This document shows, piece by piece, positions 130 to 40,287 of a stretch of DNA of 44,893 nt. The stretch covers positions 1-44,893 of the IMG/VR virus record IMGVR_UViG_3300008261_001827; one strand, written 5' to 3'. The stretch is from a virus. Taxonomy: Duplodnaviria > Heunggongvirae > Uroviricota > Caudoviricetes. The number at the start of each line of letters is the position of its first letter. Positions within the stretch are counted from its first letter, which is position 1. The notes beneath the pieces were generated by a model that saw only the letters and a program-made list of their open reading frames with translations, ran no database searches and was not told the DNA's origin. The position numbers and the translations under genes are program-made.

Positions 130-375
130 ATGGCAATTAAGATTCAAGGTACGACGATCATTAATGACGTCACCGCATACATAGATATAAATGGCACCAC
201 GGCAATTAAAGTACCAGCCGGTACCCTTTTACAAAGACCGACGGGTGTAACTGGCCAATTAAGATATAACACAACGGACGCAACATTCGAAGGTTTTAAC
301 GGGACTGCGTGGGGCCCGCTAGGGGGTGGTGCTGACGAACTTGCAAGAACTCTGGCAACGTTGGCGCTACCATAA
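130..375 (+). CDS. Small fibre-associated hypothetical protein
   Basis: AGGAG at 119-123 favours ATG 130 over 124; carries a GQLRYN...FEGFNG..W motif typical of T4-like phage fibre proteins; TAATG coupling to the next gene. Confidence 0.7.
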   Translation: MAIKIQGTTIINDVTAYIDINGTTAIKVPAGTLLQRPTGVTGQLRYNTTDATFEGFNGTAWGPLGGGADELARTLATLALP

Positions 376-1724: not shown

Positions 1725-1725
1725 T

Positions 1726-4406: not shown

Positions 4407-4430
4407 TGATAATTACAAAGGAGAAAATAA

Positions 4431-5072
4431 ATGTATGCAGTAGTTTATAACGATAGAGTAATTGTCGGACCAATGGATTGGAACCGCGCAATTTTTCAAG
4501 GATCTCTAGAAAAAGAAAATGTCACGGCTGGCATTCCTAGAGTAGCGCCAGAAACTCTTCCATATATTATTAATGAAGACACAAGAATTGCACTAGTAGA
4601 AGAACAGAGACCAGAAATCAATCCTATGGTAGAATACTACTATGGACCACAGTGGGATCTTTCCGGTGACAAGGCGGTCGCAGTATATGAAGTAGTAGAT
4701 ACACTAGTTGATTTCGCTCGCGATAATTTTAAAACTAAAGCGGCCGAAGCAAGATGGAAAAAAGAAACAGCTGGAACGAAAATAAATATACAAGGTACCG
4801 AAGTTAGTCTAGATACTAGCCGTGACGGAAGAAATATTTTCATACAGAAGTATTCTATTATGACGGAAGAAGAAGTTGCAAATTGGAAATTCCCAGAAGG
4901 TTGGCTCACTCTTACAAAGAGCGATCTTGGTTCTATTGTTTCTGCCGGTTCGAGTTATATTCAAAGTTGCTTTGACTGGGAGAAAACAATTAATGATGAA
5001 ATTAATGCAGCGACATCAAAAGAAGAATTGGTATCTATTGGTGAACAAATAGCGGAACAGATGGTAGAATAA
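4431..5072 (+). CDS. DUF4376-like protein (putative fibre assembly/accessory factor)
   Basis: AAGGAG RBS; C-terminal AEARWKKETAG...DTSRDGR...NWKF..GWLTLT...IQSCFDWE...INAA pattern matches DUF4376 phage proteins. Confidence 0.7.
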   Translation: MYAVVYNDRVIVGPMDWNRAIFQGSLEKENVTAGIPRVAPETLPYIINEDTRIALVEEQRPEINPMVEYYYGPQWDLSGDKAVAVYEVVDTLVDFARDNFKTKAAEARWKKETAGTKINIQGTEVSLDTSRDGRNIFIQKYSIMTEEEVANWKFPEGWLTLTKSDLGSIVSAGSSYIQSCFDWEKTINDEINAATSKEELVSIGEQIAEQMVE

Positions 5073-5073
5073 T

Positions 5074-6438: not shown

Positions 6439-7793
6439 TAAATTCACAAAATCTCGTAAATAAAATTTGTGCTTGCATAAGCGGGGGCGGGCTTACAGCG
6501 TTACAAACTTGCCAAACAAACGGTGCCCTAACTATTCTAAGTAATCCTGTATCTAGCGTAGCAAGTTTTGCTAACTTGCCAAACGCAGTAACATACGCAG
6601 GAAGACTGATATATGTTAATGATGAAAACCGCTATTATCACGCGGTAGACGGATATTGGTTTAATAATCTCACTAGTGAAGTTTTTAACTATCGCCCAGA
6701 CATTTATGCTTGGGGATATAATGCCACAGGTGGGCTTGGCGACGGAACCGTAGTCAACAGATCTTCTCCAGTATCAGTCGTTGGCGGCTTTACAGATTGG
6801 TGTAATGTAAGTGCCGGATACCTCCACGGTTTAGGTGTTCGTACTAATGGAACCGCTTGGGCATGGGGGAATGGGTCATGCGGGCGTCTCGGTGATAACA
6901 CATCGGTGAATAAATCTTCTCCAGTATCAGTTGTTGGCGGCTTTACAGACTGGTGTCAAGTGAGCGCTGGGAACGCTCATAGTCTAGGTGTTCGTACTAA
7001 TGGAACTGCTTGGGCATGGGGTCCTGGGACATACGGTCGCCTCGGTGACAACAGCACAGTTTCCAGATCATCTCCAGTATCAGTTGTTGGCGGCTTTACA
7101 GACTGGAGTCAAGTAAGCGCTGGGGGCAGTCACAGTCTAGGTATTCGACGAAATGGAACGACTTGGGCATGGGGGAATGGGTCATGCGGGCGTCTCGGTG
7201 ACGGAACAACAGTTGCTAAATCTTCTCCTGTGTCAGTCGTTGGTGGATTTACAGACTGGTGCCAAGTAAGCGCTGGGCGCGGCATATTGGGCACTCACAG
7301 TCTAGGTGTTCGTACTAATGGAACTGCATGGGCTTGGGGGGATGGAACATGCGGTCGCCTTGGTAATAATACAATAGTCAACAGATCTTCCCCAGTATCA
7401 GTCGTTGGCGGCTTTACCGACTGGTGTCAGGTTAGTGCCGGAGCAAATCATAGTCTAGGTGTTCGACAGAACGGGACCGCTTGGGCTTGGGGAACTGCAT
7501 TCTGCGGCGTTCTTGGCGACAACACGATAGTTTCAAAATCTTCTCCAGTGTCAGTCGTCGGCGGGTTCACGGACTGGTGTCAAGTAAGCGCAGGCGAAAC
7601 TCATAATCTAGGATTAAGAACTAATGGAACACTGTGGGCGTGGGGTTCTAACACCCAAGGTCGTCTAGGGGATAATACTATTACAGCTAAGTCTTCGCCA
7701 GTGTCAATCGTAGGTGGACTAACTGGCTGGTGTCAAATAAGCGCTAACCTTTGCTCTAGCATGGCTATTCGCCAATCACGGAAAGGATTTTAA
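6435..7793 (+). CDS. RCC1-repeat beta-propeller protein 5
   Basis: Seven RCC1 repeats; ATGA overlap; C-terminus ends KGF like protein 1. Confidence 0.92.
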   Translation: MINSQNLVNKICACISGGGLTALQTCQTNGALTILSNPVSSVASFANLPNAVTYAGRLIYVNDENRYYHAVDGYWFNNLTSEVFNYRPDIYAWGYNATGGLGDGTVVNRSSPVSVVGGFTDWCNVSAGYLHGLGVRTNGTAWAWGNGSCGRLGDNTSVNKSSPVSVVGGFTDWCQVSAGNAHSLGVRTNGTAWAWGPGTYGRLGDNSTVSRSSPVSVVGGFTDWSQVSAGGSHSLGIRRNGTTWAWGNGSCGRLGDGTTVAKSSPVSVVGGFTDWCQVSAGRGILGTHSLGVRTNGTAWAWGDGTCGRLGNNTIVNRSSPVSVVGGFTDWCQVSAGANHSLGVRQNGTAWAWGTAFCGVLGDNTIVSKSSPVSVVGGFTDWCQVSAGETHNLGLRTNGTLWAWGSNTQGRLGDNTITAKSSPVSIVGGLTGWCQISANLCSSMAIRQSRKGF

Positions 7794-9128
7794 ATGGCTA
7801 CGCAAGATGACATAAACAACTTTACTTCTAGTAATTCTGTCGGATGCTTTTTAAAGCTAGCAGCACAAACATACGTTGATACTACGAATAGAAGTATTTC
7901 TGTTGCGACCGTAGACGATCTTCCGGACTTAAGCGGTAATACTATTATACCAGGAACTATATTTTACGTTGAAAGTTTGGGTGTTCCAGTAATTGCGCAA
8001 GTCGGGTGCTGGAGCGGATTGGATAACCGTCAGTTAAGAAGCGATTTTAATACGAATTTAATTTACGCGTGGGGGTTTCCTACTTCAGGACGCCTAGGTG
8101 ATAATACTACTGTGTCTAAATCTTCTCCAGTGTTAGTCGCTGGAGGGTTTAATGACTGGCAAGCAGTAAGCGGCACTGGCTCGCATGCCTTAGGCATACG
8201 TTCTAATGGAATCGCTTGGGCTTGGGGTGCTGGTACTTCTGGAGAACTTGGTGATAATACAACAGTTGATAAATCTTCTCCAGTGTCAGTCGTTGGTGGC
8301 TTTACAGACTGGTGTCAAGTAAGCGGTGGTGGTGTTCACAGTTTGGGTATTCGTACTAATGGAACTGCATGGGGTTGGGGCGCAAACACTTTTGGCAATA
8401 TTGGTGATAACACCGGTGGTGGTAAATCTTCTCCTGTGTCAGTCGTAGGTGGCTTTACAGACTGGTGTCAAGTGAGCGCTGGGAACGCTCACAGTCTAGG
8501 TGTTCGTACTAATGGAACTGCATGGGGTTGGGGATGTAATACTGGCGGTGGACAACTTGGCGACAACACGACAGCGACTAAATCATCACCAGTATCGGTT
8601 GTTGGCGGCTTTACAGACTGGTGCCAAGTAAGTGCGTCGGTGCACAGTCTAGGTGTTCGCCAAAATGGCACCGCCTGGGCTTGGGGGGATGGAGCATGCG
8701 GGCGTCTTGGTGATTACACTACAGTTGCTAAATCTTCTCCAGTGTTAGTCGTCGGCGGGTTCACGGACTGGTGTCAAGTAAGCGCAGCAAGATGCCATAG
8801 TCTAGGTGTTCGACAGAACGGGACCGCTTGGGCTTGGGGTCTTGGAACTGACGGCCGTCTCGGTGACAACACTGTAGCTGCCAAATCTTCTCCAGTGTCA
8901 GTCGTCGGTGGCTTTACGAACTGGTGTCAGGTGGCTACAGGCTGCACCCACAGCATAGGTGTCCGACAGAACGGAACTGTCTGGTCTTGGGGTGACAACA
9001 CCTTTGGACAACTAGGTCACGGCACTTTGGTTGCTAGATCTTCTCCAGTGTCAGTTGCTGGTGGGTTAACCGGCTGGAGTCAAGTTAGCGCAGGCATAGT
9101 GTTCAGCACAGCCGTAAGAGCAGTATAG
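7794..9128 (+). CDS. RCC1-repeat beta-propeller protein 6
   Basis: Seven RCC1 repeats plus N-terminal domain. Confidence 0.92.
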   Translation: MATQDDINNFTSSNSVGCFLKLAAQTYVDTTNRSISVATVDDLPDLSGNTIIPGTIFYVESLGVPVIAQVGCWSGLDNRQLRSDFNTNLIYAWGFPTSGRLGDNTTVSKSSPVLVAGGFNDWQAVSGTGSHALGIRSNGIAWAWGAGTSGELGDNTTVDKSSPVSVVGGFTDWCQVSGGGVHSLGIRTNGTAWGWGANTFGNIGDNTGGGKSSPVSVVGGFTDWCQVSAGNAHSLGVRTNGTAWGWGCNTGGGQLGDNTTATKSSPVSVVGGFTDWCQVSASVHSLGVRQNGTAWAWGDGACGRLGDYTTVAKSSPVLVVGGFTDWCQVSAARCHSLGVRQNGTAWAWGLGTDGRLGDNTVAAKSSPVSVVGGFTNWCQVATGCTHSIGVRQNGTVWSWGDNTFGQLGHGTLVARSSPVSVAGGLTGWSQVSAGIVFSTAVRAV

Positions 9129-18422: not shown

Positions 18423-19444
18423 AAAGAATATTGATTACTGGCGGAGCCGGATTTATTGCTCACCACCTAGTATGTAAAGTGCTCAGAGAGACAGACTGGG
18501 AGATCGTTACTCTCGATAGATTGGACTACAGCGGCAATCTTAATCGCCTCCACGACTCACTACAAGAGTTCGACAGTGAAACGCGCAAGAGAGTAAGCGT
18601 GGTGTTTCACGACCTTAAAGCTGATATGAACCCGCTCGTTCGTTCAGAAGTAGGAACTGTAAACTACATCGCTCACCTCGCGGCAGGATCGCACGTGGAT
18701 CGTTCAATCGACTATCCGATGGAGTTCGTTCTCGATAACGTAGTTGGAACGTGTAATATACTCGAGTTTGCAAGATCGCAGAAGAGTAACCTTGAGAGAT
18801 TTATATACTTCAGTACGGATGAAGTCTTTGGTCCTGCGCCTGATGGAATTAAGTATGGTGAAAACGATCGCTATAACTCTACTAATCCTTATAGTGCGTC
18901 AAAAGCAGGCGGAGAAGAACTTGCCGTTGCGTATGAGAACACATACGGTCTTCCGATCTATATCACTCATACCATGAATGTCTTCGGTCAGAGACAACAT
19001 CCAGAGAAGTACATACCAATGTGCATTAAGCGAGCTCGTGATGGTGAGAAGATTACAATCCACAGCGATAGAACAAAAACGATCCCAGGATCCCGTCACT
19101 ATATTCATGCAGAAGACGTTGCTGACGCTGTTCTATTCCTTCTTAAGAACCAATTCGATTTAAAGACAGAATGGGGTGGAGCTAAGTGTCCTAAATTTAA
19201 CATCGTCGGCGCAGAAGAGATCAATAACTATGAACTCGCAAAGATCATTGCCGATGCACAGGGTAAGGAACTCAACTACGAGTTTGTTGACTTCCACTCG
19301 AGCCGCCCAGGTCACGACCTTCGTTATGCTCTAGATGGAAGCAAGATGAAGAATCTTGGATGGGAACCTGCTACATCAGTTCGTGAGAGAATTGCAGAAG
19401 TAGTGAAGTGGACTCTAGAAAATGAGAGATGGCTAAAGACATGA
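18419..19444 (+). CDS. rfbB: dTDP-glucose 4,6-dehydratase-like extended SDR
   Basis: TGGAGFIA, HLAAGSHVDRSI, STDEVFG, YSASK, RPGHDLRYALD. Confidence 0.82.
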   Translation: MKRILITGGAGFIAHHLVCKVLRETDWEIVTLDRLDYSGNLNRLHDSLQEFDSETRKRVSVVFHDLKADMNPLVRSEVGTVNYIAHLAAGSHVDRSIDYPMEFVLDNVVGTCNILEFARSQKSNLERFIYFSTDEVFGPAPDGIKYGENDRYNSTNPYSASKAGGEELAVAYENTYGLPIYITHTMNVFGQRQHPEKYIPMCIKRARDGEKITIHSDRTKTIPGSRHYIHAEDVADAVLFLLKNQFDLKTEWGGAKCPKFNIVGAEEINNYELAKIIADAQGKELNYEFVDFHSSRPGHDLRYALDGSKMKNLGWEPATSVRERIAEVVKWTLENERWLKT

Positions 19445-20229
19445 AAGTACTCGTTACAGGAACAAACGGATTTATAGGTCAGAACCTAATCAAAAAATTA
19501 CCATCTGATTGGGAGTTGGTTAAGTTTGATATTAAGGACTATCCAGACACGCGTCCAAAGTATCTAGATTTTAGCAATCTTGACTGGGTAATCCACCTCG
19601 GAGCTCTAAGCTCAACCACTGAGAAGGATGCTAGAAGAGTGATGGACCTAAACCTTGCGTGGTCCATCGAACTCGCAGAAGAATGCGAGAAACATAATGT
19701 GAATTTGCAATGGTCTTCGTCCGCATCTGTCTACGGAAACAAGTATAAGTGTCCGGTTGACGAGAGCAAAACTGTGTATCCTCTCAATCTATACGCAATG
19801 AGTAAGTATTTCTTCGAAGAGTATATGAGATCAAAAGCTCATAAATTTATATGGCAAGGATTTCGTTACTTCAATGTATACGGCCCGTGCGAAGATCATA
19901 AAGGATCTCAGGCCAGTCCGTATAATCAATTCGCGAGACAAGCTCGCGAGACTGGCGTCATTCGAGTGTTTGAAGGTTCTGAAAACTATAAGAGAGACTT
20001 CATACACGTTGATCGTGTAGTAGACGTACATCTTAAAATGATTGAGAAGAAAGAGAGTGGTATCTTTAACCTAGGCTCAGGATCTACTCGCAGCTTTCTT
20101 GACGTTGCGAGAGACGTCGCTCTTATGTACAATGCTAGTATAGAGACAATACCATTTCCTGATCATCTGAGATCTCACTATCAGGAGTATACTCATGCGG
20201 ACATGTACAAATTAAATATGCTTCTCTAA
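19441..20229 (+). CDS. hldD: ADP-L-glycero-D-manno-heptose 6-epimerase
   Basis: HLGALSSTTE, PLNLYAMSK, GFRYFNVYGP..HKGS.AS, FEGSENYKRDF, SGIFNLGSG, IPFPD closely follow HldD/RfaD. Confidence 0.9.
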   Translation: MKVLVTGTNGFIGQNLIKKLPSDWELVKFDIKDYPDTRPKYLDFSNLDWVIHLGALSSTTEKDARRVMDLNLAWSIELAEECEKHNVNLQWSSSASVYGNKYKCPVDESKTVYPLNLYAMSKYFFEEYMRSKAHKFIWQGFRYFNVYGPCEDHKGSQASPYNQFARQARETGVIRVFEGSENYKRDFIHVDRVVDVHLKMIEKKESGIFNLGSGSTRSFLDVARDVALMYNASIETIPFPDHLRSHYQEYTHADMYKLNMLL

Positions 20230-20256: not shown

Positions 20257-20284
20257 ATTATATCTGAATTATTGAAAATGTCAA
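20257..20284 (-). promoter_or_regulatory. Sigma70-type promoter TTGACA-N16-TATAAT, antisense to island 1
   Basis: + strand attata (20257-62), 16 nt, tgtcaa (20279-84); no ORF with RBS downstream on the minus strand. Confidence 0.7.
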
Positions 20285-20295
20285 CTAAAATAATA

Positions 20296-20339
20296 GGCAT
20301 ACACTCTTTTATAAATAGAAACAAAAAAGAGTGTATGCC
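20296..20339 (+). promoter_or_regulatory. Late promoter TATAAATA (20310-20317) at the loop of a perfect 15-bp inverted repeat
   Basis: ggcatacactctttt (20296-20310) and aaaagagtgtatgcc (20325-20339); 3' arm ends just before ATG 20342. Confidence 0.8.
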
Positions 20340-28570: not shown

Positions 28571-31480
28571 ATGGGTAAGAAGATTATAAGAGATTACGTT
28601 TTTTCTCCTGGCGGTGCTAACGTTGGCACAATAAAAATACCTGGAAGATATACTTTAGATCAGCTTCTGCTAATTACTAACGTTACAGATAATATTATCC
28701 TGTACACATTTGGTAACTCTACATACGGTGGTACTACAGCAACGTTTACTGCCGCAAACGACGCAACTAACTTTCCTACTATCACACAGCGAGAAGATGG
28801 GTTCACAACGATAACATTGGGAGTAAGCACTACTGGTCAGAGTGCTAGTGATTCTCTTCAAATTTTTGTTTACGGTAACGAAAACGCTGCCTCTACTATA
28901 AGACCTTGGAGTTTTGGTACTGATGCTATCGAAAGAATGCGCGTATCAAATCCCGAATCACTCATCGATGCTGACTTTGAATATGGTCTACAGCCGACAA
29001 AATGGGCAGGTTATGGAACTGTTCGCGGCTATCCATCCGCTTATGAATTACCGGGTGTTGACTTAGTTGTAACTGCTATTACTACAGATGGTGCTTCAAC
29101 AAATAGTTTAATTACAGTCACTACGTCTGTCGCGCACGGTATCGCTGCGGGACAAGCGATTAATATTTCAGCTCTAAACTCTGGAATTGCAGGATTTAGT
29201 AGAGCTGACGGAACATTTATTGTTAACACAGTGGGTGTACCTAACACTAGCACGCTAACATATTTTGCAAGGGGTGTAGTTGGAACCAATGGACAATCAT
29301 TACTAACAGATGCTACCACACTAAAGCGTGGAGCAATCTATTCAGGCGCTTCGATACCAGTAGCATCAGCAACGAGCAATGGTGCTAACCCGTCAGTAAT
29401 TACTTTAAACTTTACCAACCCACACGGATTAATTCCTGGTACTGCTATCCACTCTATCGTTGCATCTGGTACTCAGGCTGCGCTTGCTTCTGGGCCGTTT
29501 GTTGTTACGAGTGTTCCTAGTTTAACATCATTAACATATACTGCACGAGGTGGCGCTGTTGTTGTGTCTCCAGCGACCGTTACTTTATATGCGTTTACAA
29601 ATTCTACGATTGTTCACAGACCACAGGACGGCGGAGTTATTCTTTCAACTAAAACTCCAACATATGGCGCAACAGTTGCTCGTCAGAGTAAAAGATATTT
29701 TCGTTATCAATCAGGTAAAGGTTTTCTTTGGTCGACTGGAACGTTATTTAGACCAAACTATGATATTCGGAGTATAACTGCTTCCGGAACCACCGTCGGT
29801 TCTACGATTACTGTTACAACTGATGACATTGATCATGGTTTACAGATCGGCGCAGTTATAGAAATAGCAGGATCGACAACTTCTGGGTATAATGGCACAT
29901 ATACAGTAGCATCTATCGTAAGCGACTATCAGTTTACAGTATTAGCGACCAGTGTACTCGGTGCAACTACTGCAGTGTTAAATATCACGCCAAAGGTGTA
30001 TGTAATAACATGGGATGGCGCAGCTGTAAGAGCTGGGTTGTTTGACGAACAAAATGGATTATTCTGGGAATATGATGGTAGTATTTTATCTGTAGTAAAA
30101 AGAAATTCTACTGCACAATTAAGTGGAACTCTATCTGTTACGCAAAACTCAAATGCGGTGACTGGCGTAAATACAAGATTTACTCAGCAATTAAAAGCAG
30201 GCGATAGAATCGTTATCCGCGGTATGACTCACCATGTTATACAAGTAGTGAGTGATACTTCTATATTTGTGTCTCCTGATTATAGAGGTATCAATGCTTC
30301 TGGTGTAAAGGGTAACTTAATTCAAGAAACAAGAATTAGGCAGTCGCAGTTCAACATTGATACAATTGACGGAACCGGGCCAAGCGGGTTTAATATTAAC
30401 CTAAGTAAGATGCACATGGTCGGTCTACAGTATTCGTGGTACGGCGCTGGCTTTGTTGATTTTATGGTTCGTGGTAGTGATGGTAACTGGGTTTTCGTGC
30501 ATCGTATCAAAAATAACAACGTGAATGATGAAGCTTATATGAGATCTGGTAACCTCCCGGTTCGCTATTCTATCGAAAACGATACTCCAGTAACATCTCT
30601 AACTTCTACGATCGACAGCTCAGTTACAACAATTCCAGTTGCAGCACTGGAACACTTTCCAACAGCAGGAACATTGTACATAGATAACGAAATTATCAGT
30701 TACACAGGTAAGTCAGCGGCAAGTGGAGCTGGTAACTTTACCGGTGCGACTCGTGCAGCAACACTCACTCAGTGGCAAGCAGGTACTTCGACTGGATTTA
30801 CTGCTGCGGCTGCTGCAAGCCATACGGCCGGCACTGGTGTAATTCTAATAAGTAATACGTGTTCTCCAACTCTAAGTCACTGGGGTTCTGCGTTAATCAT
30901 GGACGGTGGATTTACTAAGGACCGTGGATACATCTTTAACTATCAGAGAGTCGGTTTGAGTCTTACAACCGCGAACCAAACAGCGTTCCTCATTCGTCTT
31001 GCTCCATCCGTTTCAAACAGTCAGGTTGGTGGTCTTGGAGTAAGAGATCTATTGAATCGTTCTCAGCTTCTTCTACAAGCAGTCGGTGTATCTGTTTCAG
31101 GTGGTACAAACCCTGGTGCTTGTATTGTTGAAGGCGTGTTGAATCCTAAGAATTTCTCTTCAGCGACGTGGCTTCCATTAAACGTAGAATCTGCGGGTGG
31201 CCAGCCAAGTCTCGCGCAGGTTGCGACTTCTGTGACTTATAGTGCGGGCACCGTTGCGGTACCAGGTGAACAGGTGTTTGCGTTTGCTGCTCCTTCTACC
31301 GCATCTGGCGCAGTGAACGATAGACTAGAACTTACGGAACTGAAGGAATTGACTGGTGCTCCACTAGGAGGAGATTTCCAATATCCAGACGGCTCTGACA
31401 TTCTTGCGATTAATATTCGTTTAACCGCTGGTACTGGCACGGGTCACGTTCTTCTTCGTTGGTCAGAAGCTCAAGCATAA
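28571..31480 (+). CDS. Large virion structural protein
   Basis: LLITNVTDNIILY and RVSNPESLIDADFEYGLQPTKW motifs; three ITVT...HG.. beta-repeats. Confidence 0.75.
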   Translation: MGKKIIRDYVFSPGGANVGTIKIPGRYTLDQLLLITNVTDNIILYTFGNSTYGGTTATFTAANDATNFPTITQREDGFTTITLGVSTTGQSASDSLQIFVYGNENAASTIRPWSFGTDAIERMRVSNPESLIDADFEYGLQPTKWAGYGTVRGYPSAYELPGVDLVVTAITTDGASTNSLITVTTSVAHGIAAGQAINISALNSGIAGFSRADGTFIVNTVGVPNTSTLTYFARGVVGTNGQSLLTDATTLKRGAIYSGASIPVASATSNGANPSVITLNFTNPHGLIPGTAIHSIVASGTQAALASGPFVVTSVPSLTSLTYTARGGAVVVSPATVTLYAFTNSTIVHRPQDGGVILSTKTPTYGATVARQSKRYFRYQSGKGFLWSTGTLFRPNYDIRSITASGTTVGSTITVTTDDIDHGLQIGAVIEIAGSTTSGYNGTYTVASIVSDYQFTVLATSVLGATTAVLNITPKVYVITWDGAAVRAGLFDEQNGLFWEYDGSILSVVKRNSTAQLSGTLSVTQNSNAVTGVNTRFTQQLKAGDRIVIRGMTHHVIQVVSDTSIFVSPDYRGINASGVKGNLIQETRIRQSQFNIDTIDGTGPSGFNINLSKMHMVGLQYSWYGAGFVDFMVRGSDGNWVFVHRIKNNNVNDEAYMRSGNLPVRYSIENDTPVTSLTSTIDSSVTTIPVAALEHFPTAGTLYIDNEIISYTGKSAASGAGNFTGATRAATLTQWQAGTSTGFTAAAAASHTAGTGVILISNTCSPTLSHWGSALIMDGGFTKDRGYIFNYQRVGLSLTTANQTAFLIRLAPSVSNSQVGGLGVRDLLNRSQLLLQAVGVSVSGGTNPGACIVEGVLNPKNFSSATWLPLNVESAGGQPSLAQVATSVTYSAGTVAVPGEQVFAFAAPSTASGAVNDRLELTELKELTGAPLGGDFQYPDGSDILAINIRLTAGTGTGHVLLRWSEAQA

Positions 31481-31857: not shown

Positions 31858-31873
31858 TAGTACCGATTTCATT

Positions 31874-31881
31874 GATAAATA
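31874..31881 (+). promoter_or_regulatory. Possible late promoter variant (GATAAATA) upstream of island 2
   Basis: One mismatch to TATAAATA in the intergenic gap 31858-31931. Confidence 0.45.
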
Positions 31882-31931
31882 AATGTAGTTGACAGAACTT
31901 ACATTCATATTATGAGGAATTTGATTACATC

Positions 31932-32996
31932 ATGTCATTTTTTGAACACGTCAAAGACGCGCATCAAGTAGAACAAACGTATAGATACGAAACTTCTACA
32001 ACTCTAGCACAACAAGCGTTAACAGATGGTGGAAGTATTCATCCACTGATCGTTCCATCAAAGCTCACCGGCGGCACCGGGCTTATGAACCCGTCAATTC
32101 TTGTTCATAAAGGAAAACTAATAGTTAATGTAAGATGCACTAACTATTTCTTTTATCATTCTGAGAAAAAGAAGTTTATCCATCCATGGGGACCTCTTAC
32201 ATATCTTCACCCAGAAGATGATATGAAGTTGCGCACAGAGAATTTTTATTGTGAGTTGGATGGAAATTATAACATCACTCGAGTAAACCACGTAGACACT
32301 TCAAAACTTGATAAAGAACCGATATGGGAATTCGTTGGTCTTGAGGATGCAAGACTTGTTGAATGGAACGAAAAACTCTACATGACTGGAGTTCGTAGGG
32401 ATACGAATACGACAGGCCAAGGAAGAATGGAATTATCAGAGATAGAGGTTCTCGATAATGAAGTAATAGAAGTATCTCGCACGCGTATCGGTGCTCCTGG
32501 CGAAGATACATCTTATTGTGAAAAGAACTGGATGCCGGTTCTAGATCAAGATTATACGTACATTAAGTGGTGTAACCCGACAGAAGTAGTTCTTGCTGAT
32601 ATAGAAAAAGCCAAGGCAGAAACCGTGTTTTTAGGCGACACTCGAATGTTTAATAGAAATCCAAAGGGATTGACTGAACCTAGAGGCGGTTCACAAGTCA
32701 TTTCTTTTGGTGATTACTATATTGCGTTAACTCACGAGGTTGATCTTTTTAAGGGAGAAAAGAAGGTAAAGGACGGAGTGTATCGCCATCGCTTTATCGT
32801 ATGGGATAAGAATTGGAACATTGTGAAGTTCTCTGACGACTTTACTATCATGGGTGGTCATACCGAATTTACATGCGGAATGTGCCATTATAAAGGACGA
32901 ATACTTATTACGTTTGGGTTTCAAGATAACGCCGCTTATCTACTCGAAGTGCCGTATGCGACTATTGAAAAATTTGTAAATAATGCGAAGGTTTGA
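31932..32996 (+). CDS. Five-bladed beta-propeller, GH130/DUF377-like glycoside-processing protein
   Basis: MNPS, GLEDARL, CEKNWMP, RGGSQ, THE motifs. Confidence 0.65.
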   Translation: MSFFEHVKDAHQVEQTYRYETSTTLAQQALTDGGSIHPLIVPSKLTGGTGLMNPSILVHKGKLIVNVRCTNYFFYHSEKKKFIHPWGPLTYLHPEDDMKLRTENFYCELDGNYNITRVNHVDTSKLDKEPIWEFVGLEDARLVEWNEKLYMTGVRRDTNTTGQGRMELSEIEVLDNEVIEVSRTRIGAPGEDTSYCEKNWMPVLDQDYTYIKWCNPTEVVLADIEKAKAETVFLGDTRMFNRNPKGLTEPRGGSQVISFGDYYIALTHEVDLFKGEKKVKDGVYRHRFIVWDKNWNIVKFSDDFTIMGGHTEFTCGMCHYKGRILITFGFQDNAAYLLEVPYATIEKFVNNAKV

Positions 32997-32997
32997 T

Positions 32998-34599
32998 ATG
33001 ACGGAAGAAATAAAACAGTTGATCACGATGTTCGCTCTTAATCCTAGTGACCCAGAAGTTAGTTTTATGATCGGTTCGTACTATGAGGATTTAGGTCAGT
33101 ACTCATCGGCAGGGTCTTATTACTTACGCTCGGCAGAAAGATTCGATGATAGAAATAAATCTTATGAGAGTCTAATAAGATTAGCAACATGCATGCAATC
33201 TTTGGGAAGACGGAAATATTCAACAAAGGGCCTTCTAAACTTTGCGATATCTCATATGCCAACGCGTCCAGAAGCATATTTAATTCTAAGCAAGTTCATT
33301 GAGAGCAGCGAAACGAATGACGAGAGGTGGTTTACTGCCTATTCACTCGTGTCTACCGCGCTAAGCATTCCAGACTTAGATAGTTTAAAATCGTTGAGAA
33401 GAAAAACCACATATGATGGAAAGTATTCTCTCTTACTTCAGAAAGCTCATGCTGGTTTTCATAGCGGGTTCATAGAGGAATCTAGAGAGATACTTCTTTC
33501 TATTATAAACAGCAGTGATGCCCCTAGACATCATCAGAAAGCTGCTATGAAAAATCTAATGATGATCAAAAAAGAAAATCATAGGTCTCAATACTATCAT
33601 AACGAAACTCCGTTAAAAGATGTTTACCAATCTAGTCTAGCAAAGTACGCATTAGCAAATGGCGGATCGATCCATCCTATTGTTGTACCTCACTCTGTAT
33701 CAAAAGGAATGGCGACAACAAACGCGTCTGTATTTGTTGACAGTCAAGAAAGAGTCTTTGTAAATCTCAGAGAAACTAACTATACTCTTTATTATAGTAA
33801 TAAGTTTCCAGATAAAGATGGGCCTTTAAAATATCTTTATCCTGATAGTGATATTAACATCAGGTCCGAAAACGTTGTATGTAGACTTGACGATCGTCTT
33901 AATGTTATATCTGCGGACAGAATTGATATGAAACTTAATGAGGATCCTAACTGGTTCTACATTGGGTTGGAAGATGGAAGACTCATAGAATGGGAAGGTA
34001 AAAAGTATCTCTGCGGAGTAAGAAGGGATCATATACTCGAAGGTAAGGGTAGGATGGATCTTTCACAGATTGAGATAACCAAGAACGGCGTGGTTGAGGT
34101 AGAACGGTTTTCAATTCCAGCGCCGGGAAACGACGACACCTACTGTGAAAAGAACTGGATGCCTATTCTAGACAAGCCGTTCCAATGGGTGAAGTGGACC
34201 AACCCAACTCAGATAGTTTCATTCGATACTAAAACTCTAAAGACTAACACCGTACATCTTGAGGAGTCTAAAAAGTATCGGTTCCCTCGTGATCTAAGAG
34301 GTGGTTCGCATATCATACCTTGGAACGAAGACTACTACATTGGCATTACTCACGAATGCATGTATAATAACAACGATAGCGGAAGAAGATACTTTCAGAG
34401 AATTATAGTTTGGGACAGAGACTGGAATATAGTATGTTCCACTCGTGACTTTACAATGATGAGTGGATCTATTGAGTTTGTTTCAGGTATTGCTTATCAT
34501 AAGAACGATGTGCTTATATCGTATGGGTACGAGGATAACACATCATATATACTAAGAATACCAAAAAATGTATTTGACGATTTTGTTTTGAGAGGTTGA
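32998..34599 (+). CDS. TPR domain fused to GH130/DUF377-like propeller
   Basis: N-terminal TPR-like helices; C-terminal paralog of 31932 (GLEDGRL, CEKNWMP, RGGSH, THE); AAGGT RBS supports start 32998. Confidence 0.68.
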   Translation: MTEEIKQLITMFALNPSDPEVSFMIGSYYEDLGQYSSAGSYYLRSAERFDDRNKSYESLIRLATCMQSLGRRKYSTKGLLNFAISHMPTRPEAYLILSKFIESSETNDERWFTAYSLVSTALSIPDLDSLKSLRRKTTYDGKYSLLLQKAHAGFHSGFIEESREILLSIINSSDAPRHHQKAAMKNLMMIKKENHRSQYYHNETPLKDVYQSSLAKYALANGGSIHPIVVPHSVSKGMATTNASVFVDSQERVFVNLRETNYTLYYSNKFPDKDGPLKYLYPDSDINIRSENVVCRLDDRLNVISADRIDMKLNEDPNWFYIGLEDGRLIEWEGKKYLCGVRRDHILEGKGRMDLSQIEITKNGVVEVERFSIPAPGNDDTYCEKNWMPILDKPFQWVKWTNPTQIVSFDTKTLKTNTVHLEESKKYRFPRDLRGGSHIIPWNEDYYIGITHECMYNNNDSGRRYFQRIIVWDRDWNIVCSTRDFTMMSGSIEFVSGIAYHKNDVLISYGYEDNTSYILRIPKNVFDDFVLRG

Positions 34600-34600
34600 T

Positions 34601-35620
34601 ATGCTTGTAGAAAAGATTAAATCTTATGTAAGTGATCCAGAAAACGCGCAGTTCAACTACGATCTTGGAAAGGAGTATGAAGTACTTAAACAGTACTCTG
34701 CCGCCTGCGGATACTTTTTAAGAGCTGCGGATAGAACTGACGACAACGAGTTGGTCTATAATTCTTTAGTGTCAGCCGCAAAGTCTCTAATAGAGCACGG
34801 TGACAGCTTCGCAATCGTAGATAAGATTTTAAAGCATGCTATGTCAATAGATACGTCAAGAATAGACGCGTTTTATCTTATGCTGCTAACTTATAAATAT
34901 ATTGGAGAAGATCAAGCATTTGAGGAAATGCACCCAGTCTTTCTTCGACTAAAAGAAGAAACCACTAAGAGCGAGATATATGATATGATAAATTTGAACG
35001 ATATAATGAAGAAGTACATTCCTTCGATTGGTACTATTAGATACTCCGAAGACCAACCACAAAAAGATTTCAAACACATGATAGAGAAAGAGTTTGCAGC
35101 GGCTGCTACGACTCCTAGTGACATTCATGAACACTTGCCGGTTCTATACGAACTCGCCAAAGAATGCAATCATATAACAGAGATGGGTGTAAGGTTTGGA
35201 GTTAGTACTAGGGCATTCTTGAGAGCTAACGCAAAACTAATTTCTTATGACATCGTTACAGATCAAAAAGTAGTTGAACTCATGAATAATGCTAGTTCCG
35301 CTGGAAAAGACACAAAGTTCATTGAAGCGGATGTTCTTAATGTCGAGATTGAGGAGACAGATCTTTTGTTTATAGACACATGGCACGAATATGAACAACT
35401 AAAGAAAGAACTATCTCTTCATGCTAACAAAGTAAGAAAGTACATCGCATTTCATGATACGAACACATATGGTCTAAAAAATGAAGGTGGAGACAACAAA
35501 CAACTTACACAAGGGCTCCTTCCTGCGATTATAGAGTTTCTTATTGAAAATCAAAATTGGAGATTTAAGATGTTTCTTACAAACAACAATGGTCTCACAG
35601 TGCTAGAAAGAATTTCGTAA
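34601..35620 (+). CDS. TPR domain fused to class I methyltransferase (Methyltransf_24-like)
   Basis: TPR paralogous to that of 32998; SDIHEHL..L, EMGVRFGVST, DLLFIDTWH, YIAFHDT. Confidence 0.75.
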   Translation: MLVEKIKSYVSDPENAQFNYDLGKEYEVLKQYSAACGYFLRAADRTDDNELVYNSLVSAAKSLIEHGDSFAIVDKILKHAMSIDTSRIDAFYLMLLTYKYIGEDQAFEEMHPVFLRLKEETTKSEIYDMINLNDIMKKYIPSIGTIRYSEDQPQKDFKHMIEKEFAAAATTPSDIHEHLPVLYELAKECNHITEMGVRFGVSTRAFLRANAKLISYDIVTDQKVVELMNNASSAGKDTKFIEADVLNVEIEETDLLFIDTWHEYEQLKKELSLHANKVRKYIAFHDTNTYGLKNEGGDNKQLTQGLLPAIIEFLIENQNWRFKMFLTNNNGLTVLERIS

Positions 35621-36336
35621 TGAATAGTCTAAATGACAACATATCATTTGATGGTATAGATTCTATAGAAACTGTAGCAACGCTATATCACGAATTCTTT
35701 ATAAGAAATGATTACGATTGGTGGTATAAAGTTCAACCAAACGACATCGTAGTGGACATAGGTGCATGTAACGGAATGTTCACATGTCATGCTCTGGACA
35801 ACGGCGCCAAAAAGGTGTATTCTATCGAGGGAAATTCTAAACTCATAAAAACAGTAATACACAATGCGTCACCACATATCATAAATAAAAAAGAATCTCC
35901 ATTGGTTCCTATTAACTGCGTTATAGGGAATGACCCAATGTATACTAGAAATGTTTTTGGCGAAGGATATGATAAGGCCGTTCCTATTCGTTCGTTTAAA
36001 GATATCATAAAGGAATATGATATCACGCATATAGACTATCTTAAGATAGATGCCGAAGGAGCCGAATATGATATCTTGTCAGAAGAAAATCTTGAATTCA
36101 TAAAAAATAATGTTAAACACATTGCGGTCGAAGTGCATCTTGATTGCTTTGAAGATGCGCCAGTTTTATTCAAAAAATTTAGAGACAACTTCTTATCAAA
36201 ATTTGATGCAAGTAAGATAAAATATCTTCAGGAAGATTCACAACAGAAAATGTATGACGATGCATATTTGAATTCAAAGTGGCCTCTCGGTTGGGGAAGC
36301 TGTTGGATGATCTACATCTGCAACAAGTCATTATAA
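35620..36336 (+). CDS. FkbM-family methyltransferase
   Basis: VVDIGACNG, YSIEG, IDYLKIDAEGAEYDI. Confidence 0.85.
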   Translation: MNSLNDNISFDGIDSIETVATLYHEFFIRNDYDWWYKVQPNDIVVDIGACNGMFTCHALDNGAKKVYSIEGNSKLIKTVIHNASPHIINKKESPLVPINCVIGNDPMYTRNVFGEGYDKAVPIRSFKDIIKEYDITHIDYLKIDAEGAEYDILSEENLEFIKNNVKHIAVEVHLDCFEDAPVLFKKFRDNFLSKFDASKIKYLQEDSQQKMYDDAYLNSKWPLGWGSCWMIYICNKSL

Positions 36337-36358
36337 TAATTTGAGAGGTACAAATAAT

Positions 36359-37942
36359 ATGATAGTCGATTTCTTTCCTTTCTTTGCTCCATACGGAGAA
36401 GAAACACTTAAGCTGAGATATGAAGTACTTAAGGATCATGTAGATTATTTTGTTATATCAGAGTCAAATAAAACTCACGCTGGTCATAAAGTTGAAAGAC
36501 AGTTTCCTGAGATCGCAGGCAGACTTGAGATGGATCCAAATAAGATCATCTATATAGCACACGATATACCGGACGACGACAAGTTGGAGATCCTTCCTAT
36601 TGATATTCAAAACACGTATGGAAATCGTGATAAGATTGAATCGCAAAGAGCAAGAGCTCGTGAGCGCCTTCAGAAAGACGCGCTCCTAAAAGTCCTCGAC
36701 ACGTTTGATGATGATACTGTCTTTATTCACGGCGATGCTGATGAAATCATTCGGCCGGATGGAATTCCGTATCTATCACGTGTCTGCCGAGAAAACCAAG
36801 AGATAATCATTAAGGTTCCACTCGTTTATCTCGAAGGAAGAGCAGATCTTCGTCTTTATCACAGAGATAGTAACACACCGGTTCAATGGTCCGGCGCAAT
36901 GTTTCTTGCTACGAAAGCTCAACTTAAAAGGGCTACACCAGCGCAGATACGTTCAAATGTAAATAACCCGTTTCCAATTCATTATATTACGGAAAACGGT
37001 GCTGCTATTCAGGATCTTGGATGGCACTTCTCTTGGATGGGTGGGCCTGAAAAGCGAGCCCTGAAGTCTCAAGTATGGGCCCATTATAACGACTCATTCG
37101 AGTGGTTAGGAGGAAATGAAACAGACAGCATTAAAGAGATAAAGTCATACCGTGACGAGACATACGTGACATTCTTAACAGAGAACGAAATGAAAGAAGG
37201 ATCTACTCCGCCTTCTGGAAATAAAAATCACGTCTTAAAGAAGTACTCTATTAGTGGGCTACCAAAAGAAATTCTTGAGAGCGAGTACTTAAAGAACTAC
37301 TTTCTGCCAGATGTCAAAGAAGATAGTTTAGATGTATTTGAAAGGGCTGTTATAAATCCTTCTTCTCTAATAAGCCCGTATAAAAAGAGAGTATGGATCG
37401 TAGACGATTTCTATCATAACCCAGATGAAGTAAGACAGTATGCTCTAACTCGTGAATTCGATAAGGGTGGCTTCGGAAAAGGATATATGGGAAATAGAAC
37501 TTTTAAACAGTTTCTATTCCCAGGCCTGAAGGAAGAATTTGAAAAGATCATGGGAATGAAGATTACAAAATGGGAACAACATGGTATGAATGGCAGGTTC
37601 CAGACATGTTATGCAGGAGATGCTCTTGTTTATCACTGCGACGATCAGAAATATGCTGGTATGTTATTCCTAACACCCGACGCGCCATTCGAGACTGGTA
37701 CTTCAATGTACGCGCATAAGGCAACACGTATTCGTCACAATTCTCATCCAGAGATCATGAGCACCTTCTCTGGGCACACTACTCTCGATAAAACTCCATA
37801 TGAACCGGTCGACGTAGTTGGAAATGTCTATAACAGACTCGTCATATTTGACGCAGGTATGATTCACGCAGCATCCGGATACTTCGGATATAACAACGAG
37901 AATTCTCGCTTGTGGCAAATGTTCTTTTTTGACGCGGAGTAA
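36359..37942 (+). CDS. GT17-like glycosyltransferase fused to DUF6445-like 2OG-Fe(II) oxygenase
   Basis: LRYEVLKDHVDYFVISESNKTHAG, HGDADEI, GWHFSWMGG (GT17-like); VWIVDDFY, YHCD, NVYNRLVIFD..IHA..RLWQMFFFD (oxygenase); GAGGT RBS supports ATG 36359. Confidence 0.75.
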   Translation: MIVDFFPFFAPYGEETLKLRYEVLKDHVDYFVISESNKTHAGHKVERQFPEIAGRLEMDPNKIIYIAHDIPDDDKLEILPIDIQNTYGNRDKIESQRARARERLQKDALLKVLDTFDDDTVFIHGDADEIIRPDGIPYLSRVCRENQEIIIKVPLVYLEGRADLRLYHRDSNTPVQWSGAMFLATKAQLKRATPAQIRSNVNNPFPIHYITENGAAIQDLGWHFSWMGGPEKRALKSQVWAHYNDSFEWLGGNETDSIKEIKSYRDETYVTFLTENEMKEGSTPPSGNKNHVLKKYSISGLPKEILESEYLKNYFLPDVKEDSLDVFERAVINPSSLISPYKKRVWIVDDFYHNPDEVRQYALTREFDKGGFGKGYMGNRTFKQFLFPGLKEEFEKIMGMKITKWEQHGMNGRFQTCYAGDALVYHCDDQKYAGMLFLTPDAPFETGTSMYAHKATRIRHNSHPEIMSTFSGHTTLDKTPYEPVDVVGNVYNRLVIFDAGMIHAASGYFGYNNENSRLWQMFFFDAE

Positions 37943-37944
37943 AG

Positions 37945-38676
37945 ATGAATTACGAAAACTTTGATTGGGGTCCAACAGATAAAGAATATGCAAACTTATT
38001 TACTAAAGAAAATTTTATCGATAGAACATACGAACTATTATATAAGATAAAAGAAATCGATGTCGTTGTAGATATTGGTGCAAACGTTGGTTCTTTCATA
38101 TATTCTCTAAAGGATATTAAACCTAAACACGCATTTTGTTTAGAACCATCAAACATTGTATTCAAAACGCTGGAAAAAAATCTAGAAATATTTTCGTGTA
38201 CACTGATAAATAAAGGTATATCTGGAGTAGATACCGACTACAACATAATCAAACCGGGGTCAGATTATATCTATCATCACGCCGGCAGTATGTTTTCAAC
38301 TATTCGGTTCGATACGTTAATAAAAGATTATAACATAGAGACGATAGATTTCTTAAAATTTGATTGCGAAGGCGGGGAAGCTTTTATCTTCACTAAAGAA
38401 AATTCTTCTATGATCAAAAAAATAGTTAAGAACATAGCTGGTGAATATCACATAGTCGGAGTTCCAAATTCTATAGAGAACTTTATAGAATTTAGAGATA
38501 ACTACCTGTTAGATTTAAGAGGAACAGAACATCTGCGTGTATATGAAAGAGATGGAAAAGACGTAACAGAACAAATTTTCGATAACAACTTTTTGCGTGC
38601 CTATGAAGAGTGGTGGAGAATTAATAACCCATATAAGGGTCAGTTTATGGTATATGCAAATTTGAAAGGAATGTAG
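37945..38676 (+). CDS. FkbM-family methyltransferase
   Basis: VVDIGANVG, CLEPS, IDFLKFDCEGGE; paralog of 35620. Confidence 0.85.
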   Translation: MNYENFDWGPTDKEYANLFTKENFIDRTYELLYKIKEIDVVVDIGANVGSFIYSLKDIKPKHAFCLEPSNIVFKTLEKNLEIFSCTLINKGISGVDTDYNIIKPGSDYIYHHAGSMFSTIRFDTLIKDYNIETIDFLKFDCEGGEAFIFTKENSSMIKKIVKNIAGEYHIVGVPNSIENFIEFRDNYLLDLRGTEHLRVYERDGKDVTEQIFDNNFLRAYEEWWRINNPYKGQFMVYANLKGM

Positions 38677-38677
38677 A

Positions 38678-39424
38678 ATGAAGATAGTACTTGTAACTGG
38701 TGGTTTCGATCCCCTTCATAGCGGTCATATTGCATACTTTAATGAAGCAAAAGAACTCGGAGATATTCTAATAGTTGGAGTAAATAGTGACGAATGGCTG
38801 ACTCGTAAAAAGGGTCAGCCATTCATGAGTCTATCAGAAAGAGTTGCGATCGTTGAGAGCCTTCATATGGTCGATAGTGTCATGATATTTGACGATAGTG
38901 ACGGCGGGGCGTCCGAAGCGATTAAGCTGTGTCTAGGAAAGTATCCACACGATGAAATCATTTTTGCGAACGGTGGTGATAGAACCGATAGCAATATTCC
39001 GGAAATGAGTATCGTAGACAGCCGACTATCGTTTGTGTTTGGAGTCGGTGGAACTCATAAGATGAATTCTAGCAGTAAGATCCTTACTGAGTGGAAGACA
39101 CCTAAGACGGAAAGAAAGTGGGGATACTATCGAGTCCTACACTCGGACGGTCCTTCTACAAAAGTAAAAGAACTCATAGTCGAGCCAGGAAAGTCTCTCA
39201 GTCTTCAGAGACATAGTTTTAGAAACGAACTATGGTACGTTACAAATGGTACCGGTGCTATCAAACTAAACGGAGTGTTGTCGCCTTTAAAGAAAGGCGA
39301 CTTTGTAAACATATATGTTTCTGACTGGCACCAACTCATTAACGATTCTTCTGAAGAACTAAAGATTGTTGAGATCCAGTATGGACAGAACTGCTACGAA
39401 GAAGATATCGAGCGCATCGAGTAA
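38678..39424 (+). CDS. Cytidylyltransferase-like domain fused to MannoseP_isomer-type cupin
   Basis: TGGFDPLHSGH, GVNSDEWL.RKKG, FANGGDR; RKWGYYRVL...KVKEL.VEPGKSLSLQRH. Confidence 0.82.
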   Translation: MKIVLVTGGFDPLHSGHIAYFNEAKELGDILIVGVNSDEWLTRKKGQPFMSLSERVAIVESLHMVDSVMIFDDSDGGASEAIKLCLGKYPHDEIIFANGGDRTDSNIPEMSIVDSRLSFVFGVGGTHKMNSSSKILTEWKTPKTERKWGYYRVLHSDGPSTKVKELIVEPGKSLSLQRHSFRNELWYVTNGTGAIKLNGVLSPLKKGDFVNIYVSDWHQLINDSSEELKIVEIQYGQNCYEEDIERIE

Positions 39425-39458
39425 GTATATACTACCGGCTTGATAGATGTTAAATCTA

Positions 39459-39486
39459 ATTATATCAGATATTTCACATATGTCAA
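39459..39486 (-). promoter_or_regulatory. Sigma70-type promoter TTGACA-N16-TATAAT, antisense to island 2
   Basis: + strand attata (39459-64), 16 nt, tgtcaa (39481-86); same layout as 20257-20284. Confidence 0.7.
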
Positions 39487-39500
39487 CCAAAAAATGTGGT

Positions 39501-39537
39501 TCATCTTCTTTTATAAATAGATCAAAAAGTAGGGTGA
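39501..39537 (+). promoter_or_regulatory. Late promoter TATAAATA (39512-39519) inside an imperfect hairpin covering the gp13 RBS
   Basis: tcatcttctttt pairs with aaaagtagggtga (two G-U pairs, one bulge); ATG at 39544. Confidence 0.7.
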
Positions 39538-39543
39538 TCAAAC

Positions 39544-40287
39544 ATGGCACGTCCTTCAACAAGAAGCGAATTCAAAGATTATGTTCTTAGAAAGATCGGT
39601 GCGCCAGTCATTCAGATCAACGTTTCTGATGAACAGATAGAAGATCGTATTGACGAGGCAATAGCATTCTGGAGAGACTACCACTATGATGGTAGCCAGA
39701 TGATATATCTTAAGCATGCTCTAACACAACAAGAGATAGATCAGGGATATATCGAAGTACCACAAAACATTCTCGGTATCACTCGTATCTTTGATCTTAG
39801 CTCTTCTATCTCGACCGGTACCGGCTTCTTCAACGTTCAATACCAATTCGTTTTGAACAACCTAGAAGACATTACTGGGTACAACATTCAGCATTACTAC
39901 ATGGCTCTATCTCACCTACAGTTCCTGCAAGAAATACTTGTAGGCCGCCCTCTCATAAGATACAATCGCCATGTAAACCGTTTATATGTAGATGTAAATA
40001 AGGCCATATTGAATCCTGGGTCGTTTATCATTATAGAGGGATATGACATTATTGATGGCAACACATACTCCGACGTATGGAGCGATCGCTTTCTTCAGAA
40101 CTATGCGTCTATCTTAATACGCGAGCAGTGGGGTGTAAACCTAACTAAGTTTACAAACATGCAACTTATCGGAGGTGTTCAGTTCAACGGCGAACAGATC
40201 CTATCGGAAGCAAAAGCAGACCGCAAAGAGATGGAAGAAAATGCGAAGACTTCACTTCAACCACTCGTTTACAATTTCGTTGGATGA
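39544..40287 (+). CDS. gp13: Neck protein gp13
   Basis: MARPSTR.EFKDYVLRKIGAPVIQINV..EQIEDRIDEA...YHYDG; EQWG.NL.KF..MQL.GGV.FNG. Confidence 0.92.
   Translation: MARPSTRSEFKDYVLRKIGAPVIQINVSDEQIEDRIDEAIAFWRDYHYDGSQMIYLKHALTQQEIDQGYIEVPQNILGITRIFDLSSSISTGTGFFNVQYQFVLNNLEDITGYNIQHYYMALSHLQFLQEILVGRPLIRYNRHVNRLYVDVNKAILNPGSFIIIEGYDIIDGNTYSDVWSDRFLQNYASILIREQWGVNLTKFTNMQLIGGVQFNGEQILSEAKADRKEMEENAKTSLQPLVYNFVG

Follow-up and report, generated by a model that had tools for sequence, protein, structure and literature searches.

In cells infected with phage T4, early transcription includes the strand complementary to the late messages, giving the anti-late RNA known from the hybridisation work of the 1970s, and Belin et al. 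(1987; cited in PMC3014915 and PMC2988021) reportedly described both sense and antisense transcription of T4 gene 32. We know of no dedicated, conserved promoters that have been defined for anti-late RNA in T4. The promoter-early stem-loop (PeSL) cassettes of T4-type phages drive a downstream, often ORFan gene in the sense orientation. These cassettes (Arbiol et al. 2010, PMC2839356; Comeau et al. 2014, PMC4122927) are composed of a terminator stem-loop and a promoter and are associated with nearby ORFs of hyperplastic regions (PMC4122927). The early promoters of T4 have been described as "uber" promoters with UP, −35, TGn and −10 elements, which are used immediately by the host polymerase (PMC2988021). 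Another type of control relies on T4 hairpins that contain a late promoter and block translation of the read-through e, soc, 49 and I-TevI transcripts (Uzan and Miller 2010, PMC3014915; McPheeters et al. 1986 cited there). Because the Shine-Dalgarno sequence or the start region is paired in these hairpins, long transcripts would be untranslatable, whereas the late transcripts start past the 5′ arm. The T4 origins oriF(uvsY) and oriG(34) consist of a promoter and an A+T-rich downstream element (DUE), ~100 bp; there are several per genome, they are described as coinciding with recombination hot spots, and their promoters are MotA-dependent middle promoters with little sequence shared between them (Kreuzer and Brister 2010, PMC3016281).

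The locus that we compare here with these systems belongs to an uncultured T4-like lake phage whose sequence is present in lake and freshwater metagenomes. The stretch of DNA analysed (44,893 nt, hereafter the window) makes up the first 44.9 kb of a viral contig of 111,208 bp (G000; 42% GC, estimated completeness 53%). Plus-strand genes extend to ~55 kb and comprise virion genes and two glycan-enzyme islands; beyond ~55 kb the genes are mostly on the minus strand, with early genes and a late block at ~94-104 kb. Island 1 encodes a sulfotransferase, FkbM, GT2 and epimerases, and island 2 (31932-39424) encodes FkbM methyltransferases, a glycosyltransferase-like protein and, in its last gene (38678-39424), a protein with cytidylyltransferase and mannose-6-P-isomerase cupin parts. 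According to the ORF map with Pfam and PHROG matches, 119 bp of intergenic DNA (39425-39543) separate this gene from gp13 (39544-40287), the neck or head-tail adaptor gene; the neck proteins gp13 and gp14 were identified via PHROGs. Judged by gp13, the closest cultured phage is Stenotrophomonas DLP6 (52%), followed by Sinorhizobium phiM12/phiN3 and Caulobacter Cr30. DLP6 and phiM12 have no cassette of the type described below, their gp13 being preceded by just 34 and 13 nt, respectively, and 50,697 phage records gave zero near-identity DNA matches to either of the two intergenic regions considered here. Ahead of island 1, seven ORFs of ~440-456 aa are arrayed at 375-9128, interrupted by a DUF4376 gene (4431-5072); the one ORF checked encodes an RCC1-repeat propeller.

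On the minus strand of the 119-bp region lies a sigma70-type promoter with the −35 hexamer TTGACA at 39481-39486, the −10 hexamer TATAAT at 39459-39464, a 16-nt spacer (39465-39480) with a TGn extended −10 at 39466-39467, and an AT-rich UP-like tract, cattttttgg, at 39487-39496 just upstream of the −35 (cassette consensus.ATTTTT...). The plus strand carries TATAAATA at 39512-39519, a T4-type late promoter for gp13 with a predicted start at ~39525 and a 19-nt leader. This assignment agrees with its placement before a structural gene and with the gp55 homologue found in close relatives, the contig of the window itself being only 53% complete. A sister site has the same arrangement: a perfect TTGACA-N16-TATAAT on the minus strand (20257-20284) points towards the 3′ end of an epimerase gene (19429-20229), and TATAAATA stands at 20310-20317 on the plus strand, ahead of the ATG at 20342. 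Both backward promoters have 12/12 consensus hexamer positions, TATAAATA lies 24 nt before the ATG and 25 bp away from the −35 hexamer at both sites, and the region of 39425-39543 and the intergenic DNA of the 20257 site form a gap-free alignment of ~70 columns. The original prediction that the 39459 site repeats the backward promoter of the 20257 site, with a late promoter next to it, was thus correct for both promoters. The 5′ border of island 2 (31858-31931) has neither TATAAATA nor a cassette, and its only promoter-like feature is a plus-strand TTGACA with no well-spaced −10; island 2 therefore probably shares a transcript with the tail-fibre genes upstream of it, starting at the 20310 late promoter.

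Perfect sites of this type are rare. A motif scan of the whole contig, which had been proposed together with the original prediction, found only three perfect TTGACA-N16-TATAAT sites, all of which oppose the local genes, when a first-order Markov simulation predicted a mean of 0.14 and reached three in 0/300 simulations. Sites with 12/12 matches were ~20-fold above expectation, whereas sites with 9/12 matches were as frequent as in shuffled sequence, showing that promoter-like sites are not enriched overall. As for TATAAATA, half of its copies in the contig (8/16) fall in the 4.1% of the DNA that is intergenic, and the copy before gp13 is kept in more than 40 related loci, distant relatives included.

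The backward promoter at 39459 is part of a larger cassette, and the full cassette match (model R1; 56 bits, E 2.9e-16) covers 39419-39498 on the minus strand, where the promoter is followed by a dyad and by a conserved transcribed block ending in ..GGTAGTAT. The 20257 site reached 25.7 bits through its promoter part only, about the score of an ordinary sense early promoter (24.7 bits), and was rejected as a full member of the family; its likeness to the cassette is limited to the promoter part and a degenerate AGAT dyad. L115, which was outside the model training, has the same promoter pair at its orthologue of the 20257 site, next to an epimerase gene that is 79% identical, with a different spacer.

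Among 80 loci picked by gp13 homology and not by motif, ATTATA-N16/17-TGTCAA was found ahead of TATAAATA in 27 gp13 leaders, with gp13 identities of 68-94%. Both hexamers are 12/12 in 22 distinct cassette copies from related metagenomic phages; this invariance is partly built in, since most cassettes in the alignment (A2) were chosen by a perfect-hexamer regular expression, but the bias is offset by the sampling by gp13 homology (27/80), by L115 and by the absence of degenerate copies, none of which was detected by the cassette model among 85 loci. The spacers of the same cassettes have diverged to a mean identity of 43% (minimum 12%), with a length of 16 nt kept in 21/22. The cassette number is 2-3 per genome, besides tandem double cassettes, which occur in L014, L019, L022 and L024.

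The orientation of the cassettes is as constant as their hexamers. At every full cassette, every flanking ORF of at least 80 codons is on the opposite strand, and in five genomes the full-length model matches are confined to sites with such flanking ORFs. The genes upstream of cassette-bearing gp13 leaders are always on the gp13 strand, including unrelated glycan enzymes (L037) and a tail-fibre-like gene (L045). A minus-strand gene in the relatives as the target of the minus-strand promoter was also considered and rejected, because the main upstream coding ORFs of L029, L037 and L045 are on the gp13 strand. The cassette therefore behaves as the reusable element that had been proposed, always directed at the 3′ end of the gene beside it, back-to-back with the promoter of the next unit. 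What is reused is the backward promoter, found at two types of site in the relatives; the three-part unit of backward promoter, late promoter and hairpin, which had been thought to be conserved as a whole, is not. Nor is the element tied solely to the boundaries of glycan islands, as had been suggested: it also follows the tail-fibre-like gene in L045, and an IMG/VR pattern scan found its AGAATT subfamily at two site types only, one preceding gp13 and the other separating a UvsW-like helicase gene from gene 55.

The second site type has the gene order uvsY, UvsW-like helicase gene, cassette, gene 55 (late sigma), gp47 and gp46 (L114:3079-3230, corresponding to 79078-79230 of the relative G001; also L103, L111 and L123-L135). 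There the back-to-back partner of the cassette is a sense promoter for gene 55 that is sigma70-like, TTGACA-N18-TATTAT. In T4, UvsW unwinds origin R-loops late in infection, and antisense transcription into uvsW would be notable for that reason.

A joint between two late-promoter regions was mapped by comparison with G001, a 218-kb relative. In G001 a cassette and TATAAATA end the same cupin gene (92% identical) at site A, where a 1718-aa virion structural gene follows, and gp13, which has its own hairpin leader (site B), lies 5.2 kb past site A. In alignment A3 the window corresponds to site A, the island end, up to the shared TTTTATAAATAGA (39509-39521, plus strand) and to site B, the gp13 leader, after it; the late-promoter core is thus the crossover point. 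The original prediction that the boundary marks a point of exchange is right to this extent. An exchange of the island through the antisense element, as also proposed, does not fit the alignment, because the crossover, in the sole joint mapped, lies in the late-promoter core TTTTATAAATAGA outside the sigma70 part, and the piece that differs is the virion structural gene and not the island. The presence or absence of this gene, which has a late promoter at either border, is a module difference of the host-range type. The joint shows that late-promoter cores, besides early PeSL cassettes, act as crossover points for virion and glycan modules, which is relevant to the transfer of host-range modules from phage to phage. 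The 1718-aa protein is fibre-like; its gene (L113:4076-9232) lies between island 2 and gp13 in G001 and is missing from the window, where its best match is a 969-aa protein (28571-31480; 44% over 330 aa).

Several of these features recall the PeSL cassettes. Both are small, multi-copy elements at module borders with near-perfect sigma70 promoters (TTGACA..TATAAT in RB49/phi1), and the promoter here, with its 12/12 hexamers, 16-nt spacer, TGn and AT-rich upstream tract, has the strong sigma70-like form of PeSL promoters (near TTGACA-N17-TATAAT). Recombination between conserved regulatory sequences creates indels at PeSLs, and the 5.2-kb difference here, bounded by two late promoters, parallels such shuffling (PMC2839356, PMC4122927) at a different element, the one mapped crossover lying in a late-promoter core. 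The terminator stem-loop of PeSLs is missing at the 39459 site, where a 5-bp AT-rich dyad abuts the −10 instead, and so is the sense orientation with a downstream gene, as the flanking ORFs of at least 80 codons are opposite and no conserved ORF follows. Unlike PeSLs, this cassette sits in late operons against both neighbours, with a late or other promoter as its partner. We rate it as a variant of the PeSL-type cassettes.

From the features, their conservation and orientation, and the joint, all read from sequence, we infer promoter activity, its timing and a silencing or insulating effect. The reading that we favour, and hold to be somewhat better than an even bet, is that the site is a divergent promoter module that produces early, non-coding "anti-late" transcription at the border of two late-strand transcription units. 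The plus-strand TATAAATA at 39512-39519, of the gp55-dependent type, would provide gp13, and the genes after it, with a leader that is short and unstructured. The minus-strand promoter, maximal in its consensus for host sigma70 (UP-like tract, −35, TGn and −10), would be used on entry of the DNA into the cell, and its backward transcription would enter the genes before it, in this case the glycan island, from their 3′ end, yielding a non-coding product. The effect would most likely be in cis: during the sigma70 phase, backward transcription would collide and its product would pair with rightward transcripts, so that the late-strand genes are kept silent and the next unit is shielded until late transcription takes over. 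The promoter pairing is conserved in relatives, and it probably keeps late genes quiet early in infection. The composite in the window was assembled through recombination of two late promoters.

Compared with the anti-late RNA of T4, the source would here be dedicated consensus promoters at operon ends. Temporal control of the T4 type is usually credited to sigma-factor replacement, RBS hairpins and mRNA decay, and conserved, maximal-strength host promoters directed against late operons would add antisense or collision control at the promoter level. In a broader version, head-on consensus promoters would make up an anti-late insulator system, dedicated and exchangeable, within a clade of T4-like phages, with the start-site dyad as an off-switch. 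Host polymerase would fire backwards at each cassette, where a late or separately timed unit starts, in the first minutes of infection, and the anti-late RNA of T-even phages, which has long lacked an explanation, would gain a defined genetic source and a function. This version is a tentative proposal that we regard as possible but rather less likely.

Some observations count against the favoured reading. No early or strong plus-strand sigma70 promoter whose output would have to be blocked was found upstream within the 55-kb late block, which makes the need for insulation hypothetical. A scan found no terminator for the antisense transcript, and no GC-rich stem with a T-run lies next to the 39459 promoter. 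Anti-late transcription also leaves unexplained the dyad that abuts the −10 and the conserved transcribed block after it. Three lake metatranscriptome runs, from a study whose DNA contains the sequence, had almost none of the sequence words of the window.

Among the alternatives, an R-loop replication origin or primer promoter similar to T4 oriF and oriG, in which the hybridised transcript primes the leading strand, survives best, and we consider it unlikely. The orientation against the genes would then be incidental, and origins would double as recombination hot spots, which agrees with the coincidence of the element with the recombination joint. The few copies per genome, the lack of either an ORF or a terminator downstream, the AT-rich dyad right after the −10, followed in many copies by a G-cluster (GGGAG..GTGG), and the cassette site that adjoins uvsY and the UvsW-like helicase gene all point in the same direction. 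As at oriF and oriG, a promoter is followed by an AT-rich element, here the dyad. The AT content downstream is unremarkable. The G-cluster is missing in the cassettes of L034-L037 and L045 and is weak in the window copy. The T4 origins share little sequence, whereas the cassettes here are sequence-conserved, early-type and strictly head-on to the flanking genes. An origin also leaves unexplained that every copy faces a 3′ end, that another promoter abuts it, and that a hairpin takes its place in some relatives.

The hairpin bears on a second alternative, the fixed three-part switch of the original prediction, in which the antisense promoter, the late promoter and an RBS hairpin act jointly and the hairpin gates translation of gp13 from read-through transcripts. 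In the window, a plus-strand hairpin (39501-39537, arms 39501-39512 and 39525-39537) does enclose TATAAATA and pair the Shine-Dalgarno sequence AGGGTGA (39531-39537), which as AGGGUGA meets 39501-39507 in the predicted fold, and the predicted late start at ~39525 is the first base of its 3′ arm. The pairing that had been predicted around TATAAATA and the gp13 RBS is thus part of the computed fold, but this fold is marginal: at −10.8 kcal/mol (z −1.5), with 14/200 shuffles as good, it is not distinguishable from chance. The sister site has a strong 15-bp hairpin (20296-20339, plus strand) that encloses TATAAATA and ends 2 nt short of the ATG, with a fold of −22.1 kcal/mol (z −10) that 0/200 shuffles equalled. 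As the hairpin is weak at 39501 and strong at 20296, the third part of the predicted design is shared by the two regions nominally only, whereas the two promoters are convincing in both. The minus strand past the 20296-20339 hairpin reads tattatttta and might terminate transcription there.

Strong hairpins of this kind are found in gp13 leaders that lack the cassette. Hairpins that sequester the Shine-Dalgarno sequence around TATAAATA have −19.9 kcal/mol (z −5.3) in L001 and −22.3 kcal/mol (z −6.8) in L002, and further cassette-less leaders with a hairpin are L008 (−23.6 kcal/mol, z −6.7) and L020 (z −2.1). None of nine cassette-bearing gp13 variants has a significant fold (z about −1.5 to +1.2; −1.1 in the orthologue L006). 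Strong hairpins thus occur in 3/6 cassette-less and 0/9 cassette-bearing leaders (a modest difference, Fisher p ~0.04, for ~15 related lineages and uncorrected for phylogeny), so that the hairpin and the head-on promoter look like alternative devices. At sites of the 20257 type, L081 has a terminator-like hairpin (z −3.0) and no cassette, L115 has both promoters and no hairpin, and the window has both devices, which counts against such alternation. Our best reading is that the RBS-hiding hairpin serves the same end as the backward promoter but is a device of its own, strong at 20296-20339 and vestigial at 39501-39537. In the broader, insulator version of the anti-late reading, the cassettes would do the job of the RBS-hiding hairpins or terminators found at the same positions in relatives; conserved host promoters against late operons would also mean that antisense control is swappable for RNA-structure devices in evolution. 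In L001-L005, ~60 nt before gp13 (e.g. L004:2935-2985), CCTTACTTTTT can form either of two mutually exclusive structures around the late promoter, a terminator-like hairpin with a T-run together with the upstream AAAGTAAGG or a pairing with the downstream AAAAAGTAAGG, which includes the Shine-Dalgarno sequence.

The T4 precedent (PMC3014915) supports a gating hairpin. In the design of e, soc, 49 and I-TevI, the Shine-Dalgarno sequence or the start region is paired in a helix, and TATAAATA is part of the 5′ strand of this helix or adjoins it. The 20296-20339 hairpin and the gp13 leaders of L001-L005 and L008 reproduce this design in full. At 39512-39519, TATAAATA likewise lies shortly upstream with its start beyond the 5′ arm, and one-sided changes in L006 preserve pairs (U to C, A to G), but the helix at 39501-39537 is marginal, and folds are non-significant in all cassette-bearing relatives as well. 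The 5′ arm was recombined in from another locus and resembles a decayed strong arm of the L002 type (GCCTTACTTTTT to GCCTTCTTT to GTCTTCTTT to ATCTTCTTT). In addition, L115 retains both promoters without the hairpin, and the T4 design includes no backward sigma70 promoter. We therefore find a fixed three-part switch improbable, slightly more so than an origin.

Immediately after the −10 of the backward promoter, beginning at its first following base, lies the dyad TAGAT-TTAAC-ATCTA (39444-39458, minus strand), and the predicted minus-strand start at ~39452 is inside it. The dyad stands at offset 0 after TATAAT in 20/21 cassettes, the exception being the degenerate 20257 copy. Its arms are 5-7 bp long, and lineages differ by changes on both sides (TAGAT, AGAATT, TGGAT, TGAAT). 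In most cassettes a conserved block, GGGAG..GTGGTAT, follows, and many have GGGAG, 2 nt and A/GTG. We asked whether this reads as a coding start and rejected it: the A/GTG is only 2 nt past GGGAG, which is too close for a Shine-Dalgarno sequence, the window reads GTA at this position, and the frames end, unconserved, after 11 to ~80 codons. They stop after 13 codons in L006 and after 11 in L101, and no conserved ORF lies downstream of the cassette.

These features could instead belong to an operator-controlled promoter of a trans-acting or structured RNA, where a phage or host repressor binds the start-site dyad and limits transcription to a brief burst, and the conserved 5′ block is the functional part of an sRNA or of a ribosome or RNase decoy. 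The exact position of the dyad, the two-sided changes of its arms and the conservation of ~30 nt of the transcribed block, GGGAG included, would suit such a promoter. However, the block varies by subfamily, the two G001 cassettes bear different dyads, no terminator was found by the scan, and no Rfam family reached its gathering score in the window, where the sole nearby match (E 0.6) is a chance snoRNA match. With the predicted start inside the dyad, the RNA would lack the 5′ arm, so that a 5′ hairpin of the antisense RNA is a less likely role for the dyad than that of an operator or a sense-strand structure. The dyad may be an operator or a sense-strand 3′ stem-loop; a dedicated regulatory RNA is, in our view, quite doubtful. 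Finally, AT-rich intergenic DNA yields many partial promoter matches, as the 9/12 counts illustrate, but a chance resemblance or a neutral relic devoid of promoter function, already disfavoured by the excess of 12/12 sites, is very improbable given hexamers that are invariant across divergent spacers in many lineages, a fixed spacer length and orientation, and tandem duplications that have been kept.

Outside the window, the contig also carries a different, sense early-promoter cassette, TT(G/T)ACAttcgtttagaatcagt(g/a)TAttCT, in at least nine copies in the early region at 57-88 kb (e.g. 74311-74384, 59716-59776 and 85928-85995). At 74311-74384 a GC-rich hairpin and a T-run precede the promoter, which is a true PeSL-like architecture.

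The third perfect TTGACA-N16-TATAAT of the contig (95868-95895, plus strand; L121:1369-1396) also lies outside the window, antisense within a minus-strand gene of 184 aa with no assigned function, where it covers codons 120-129. It has the same cattttt tract and lies ~170 nt before an overlapping endolysin gene, in a probable late operon; its opposition to this operon fits an anti-late or insulating role. Two relatives retain the promoter at these codons, G001 (L085, 84% aa identity) and, with a different spacer, G002 (L092, 72%), which suggests selection at the nucleotide level inside the coding sequence.
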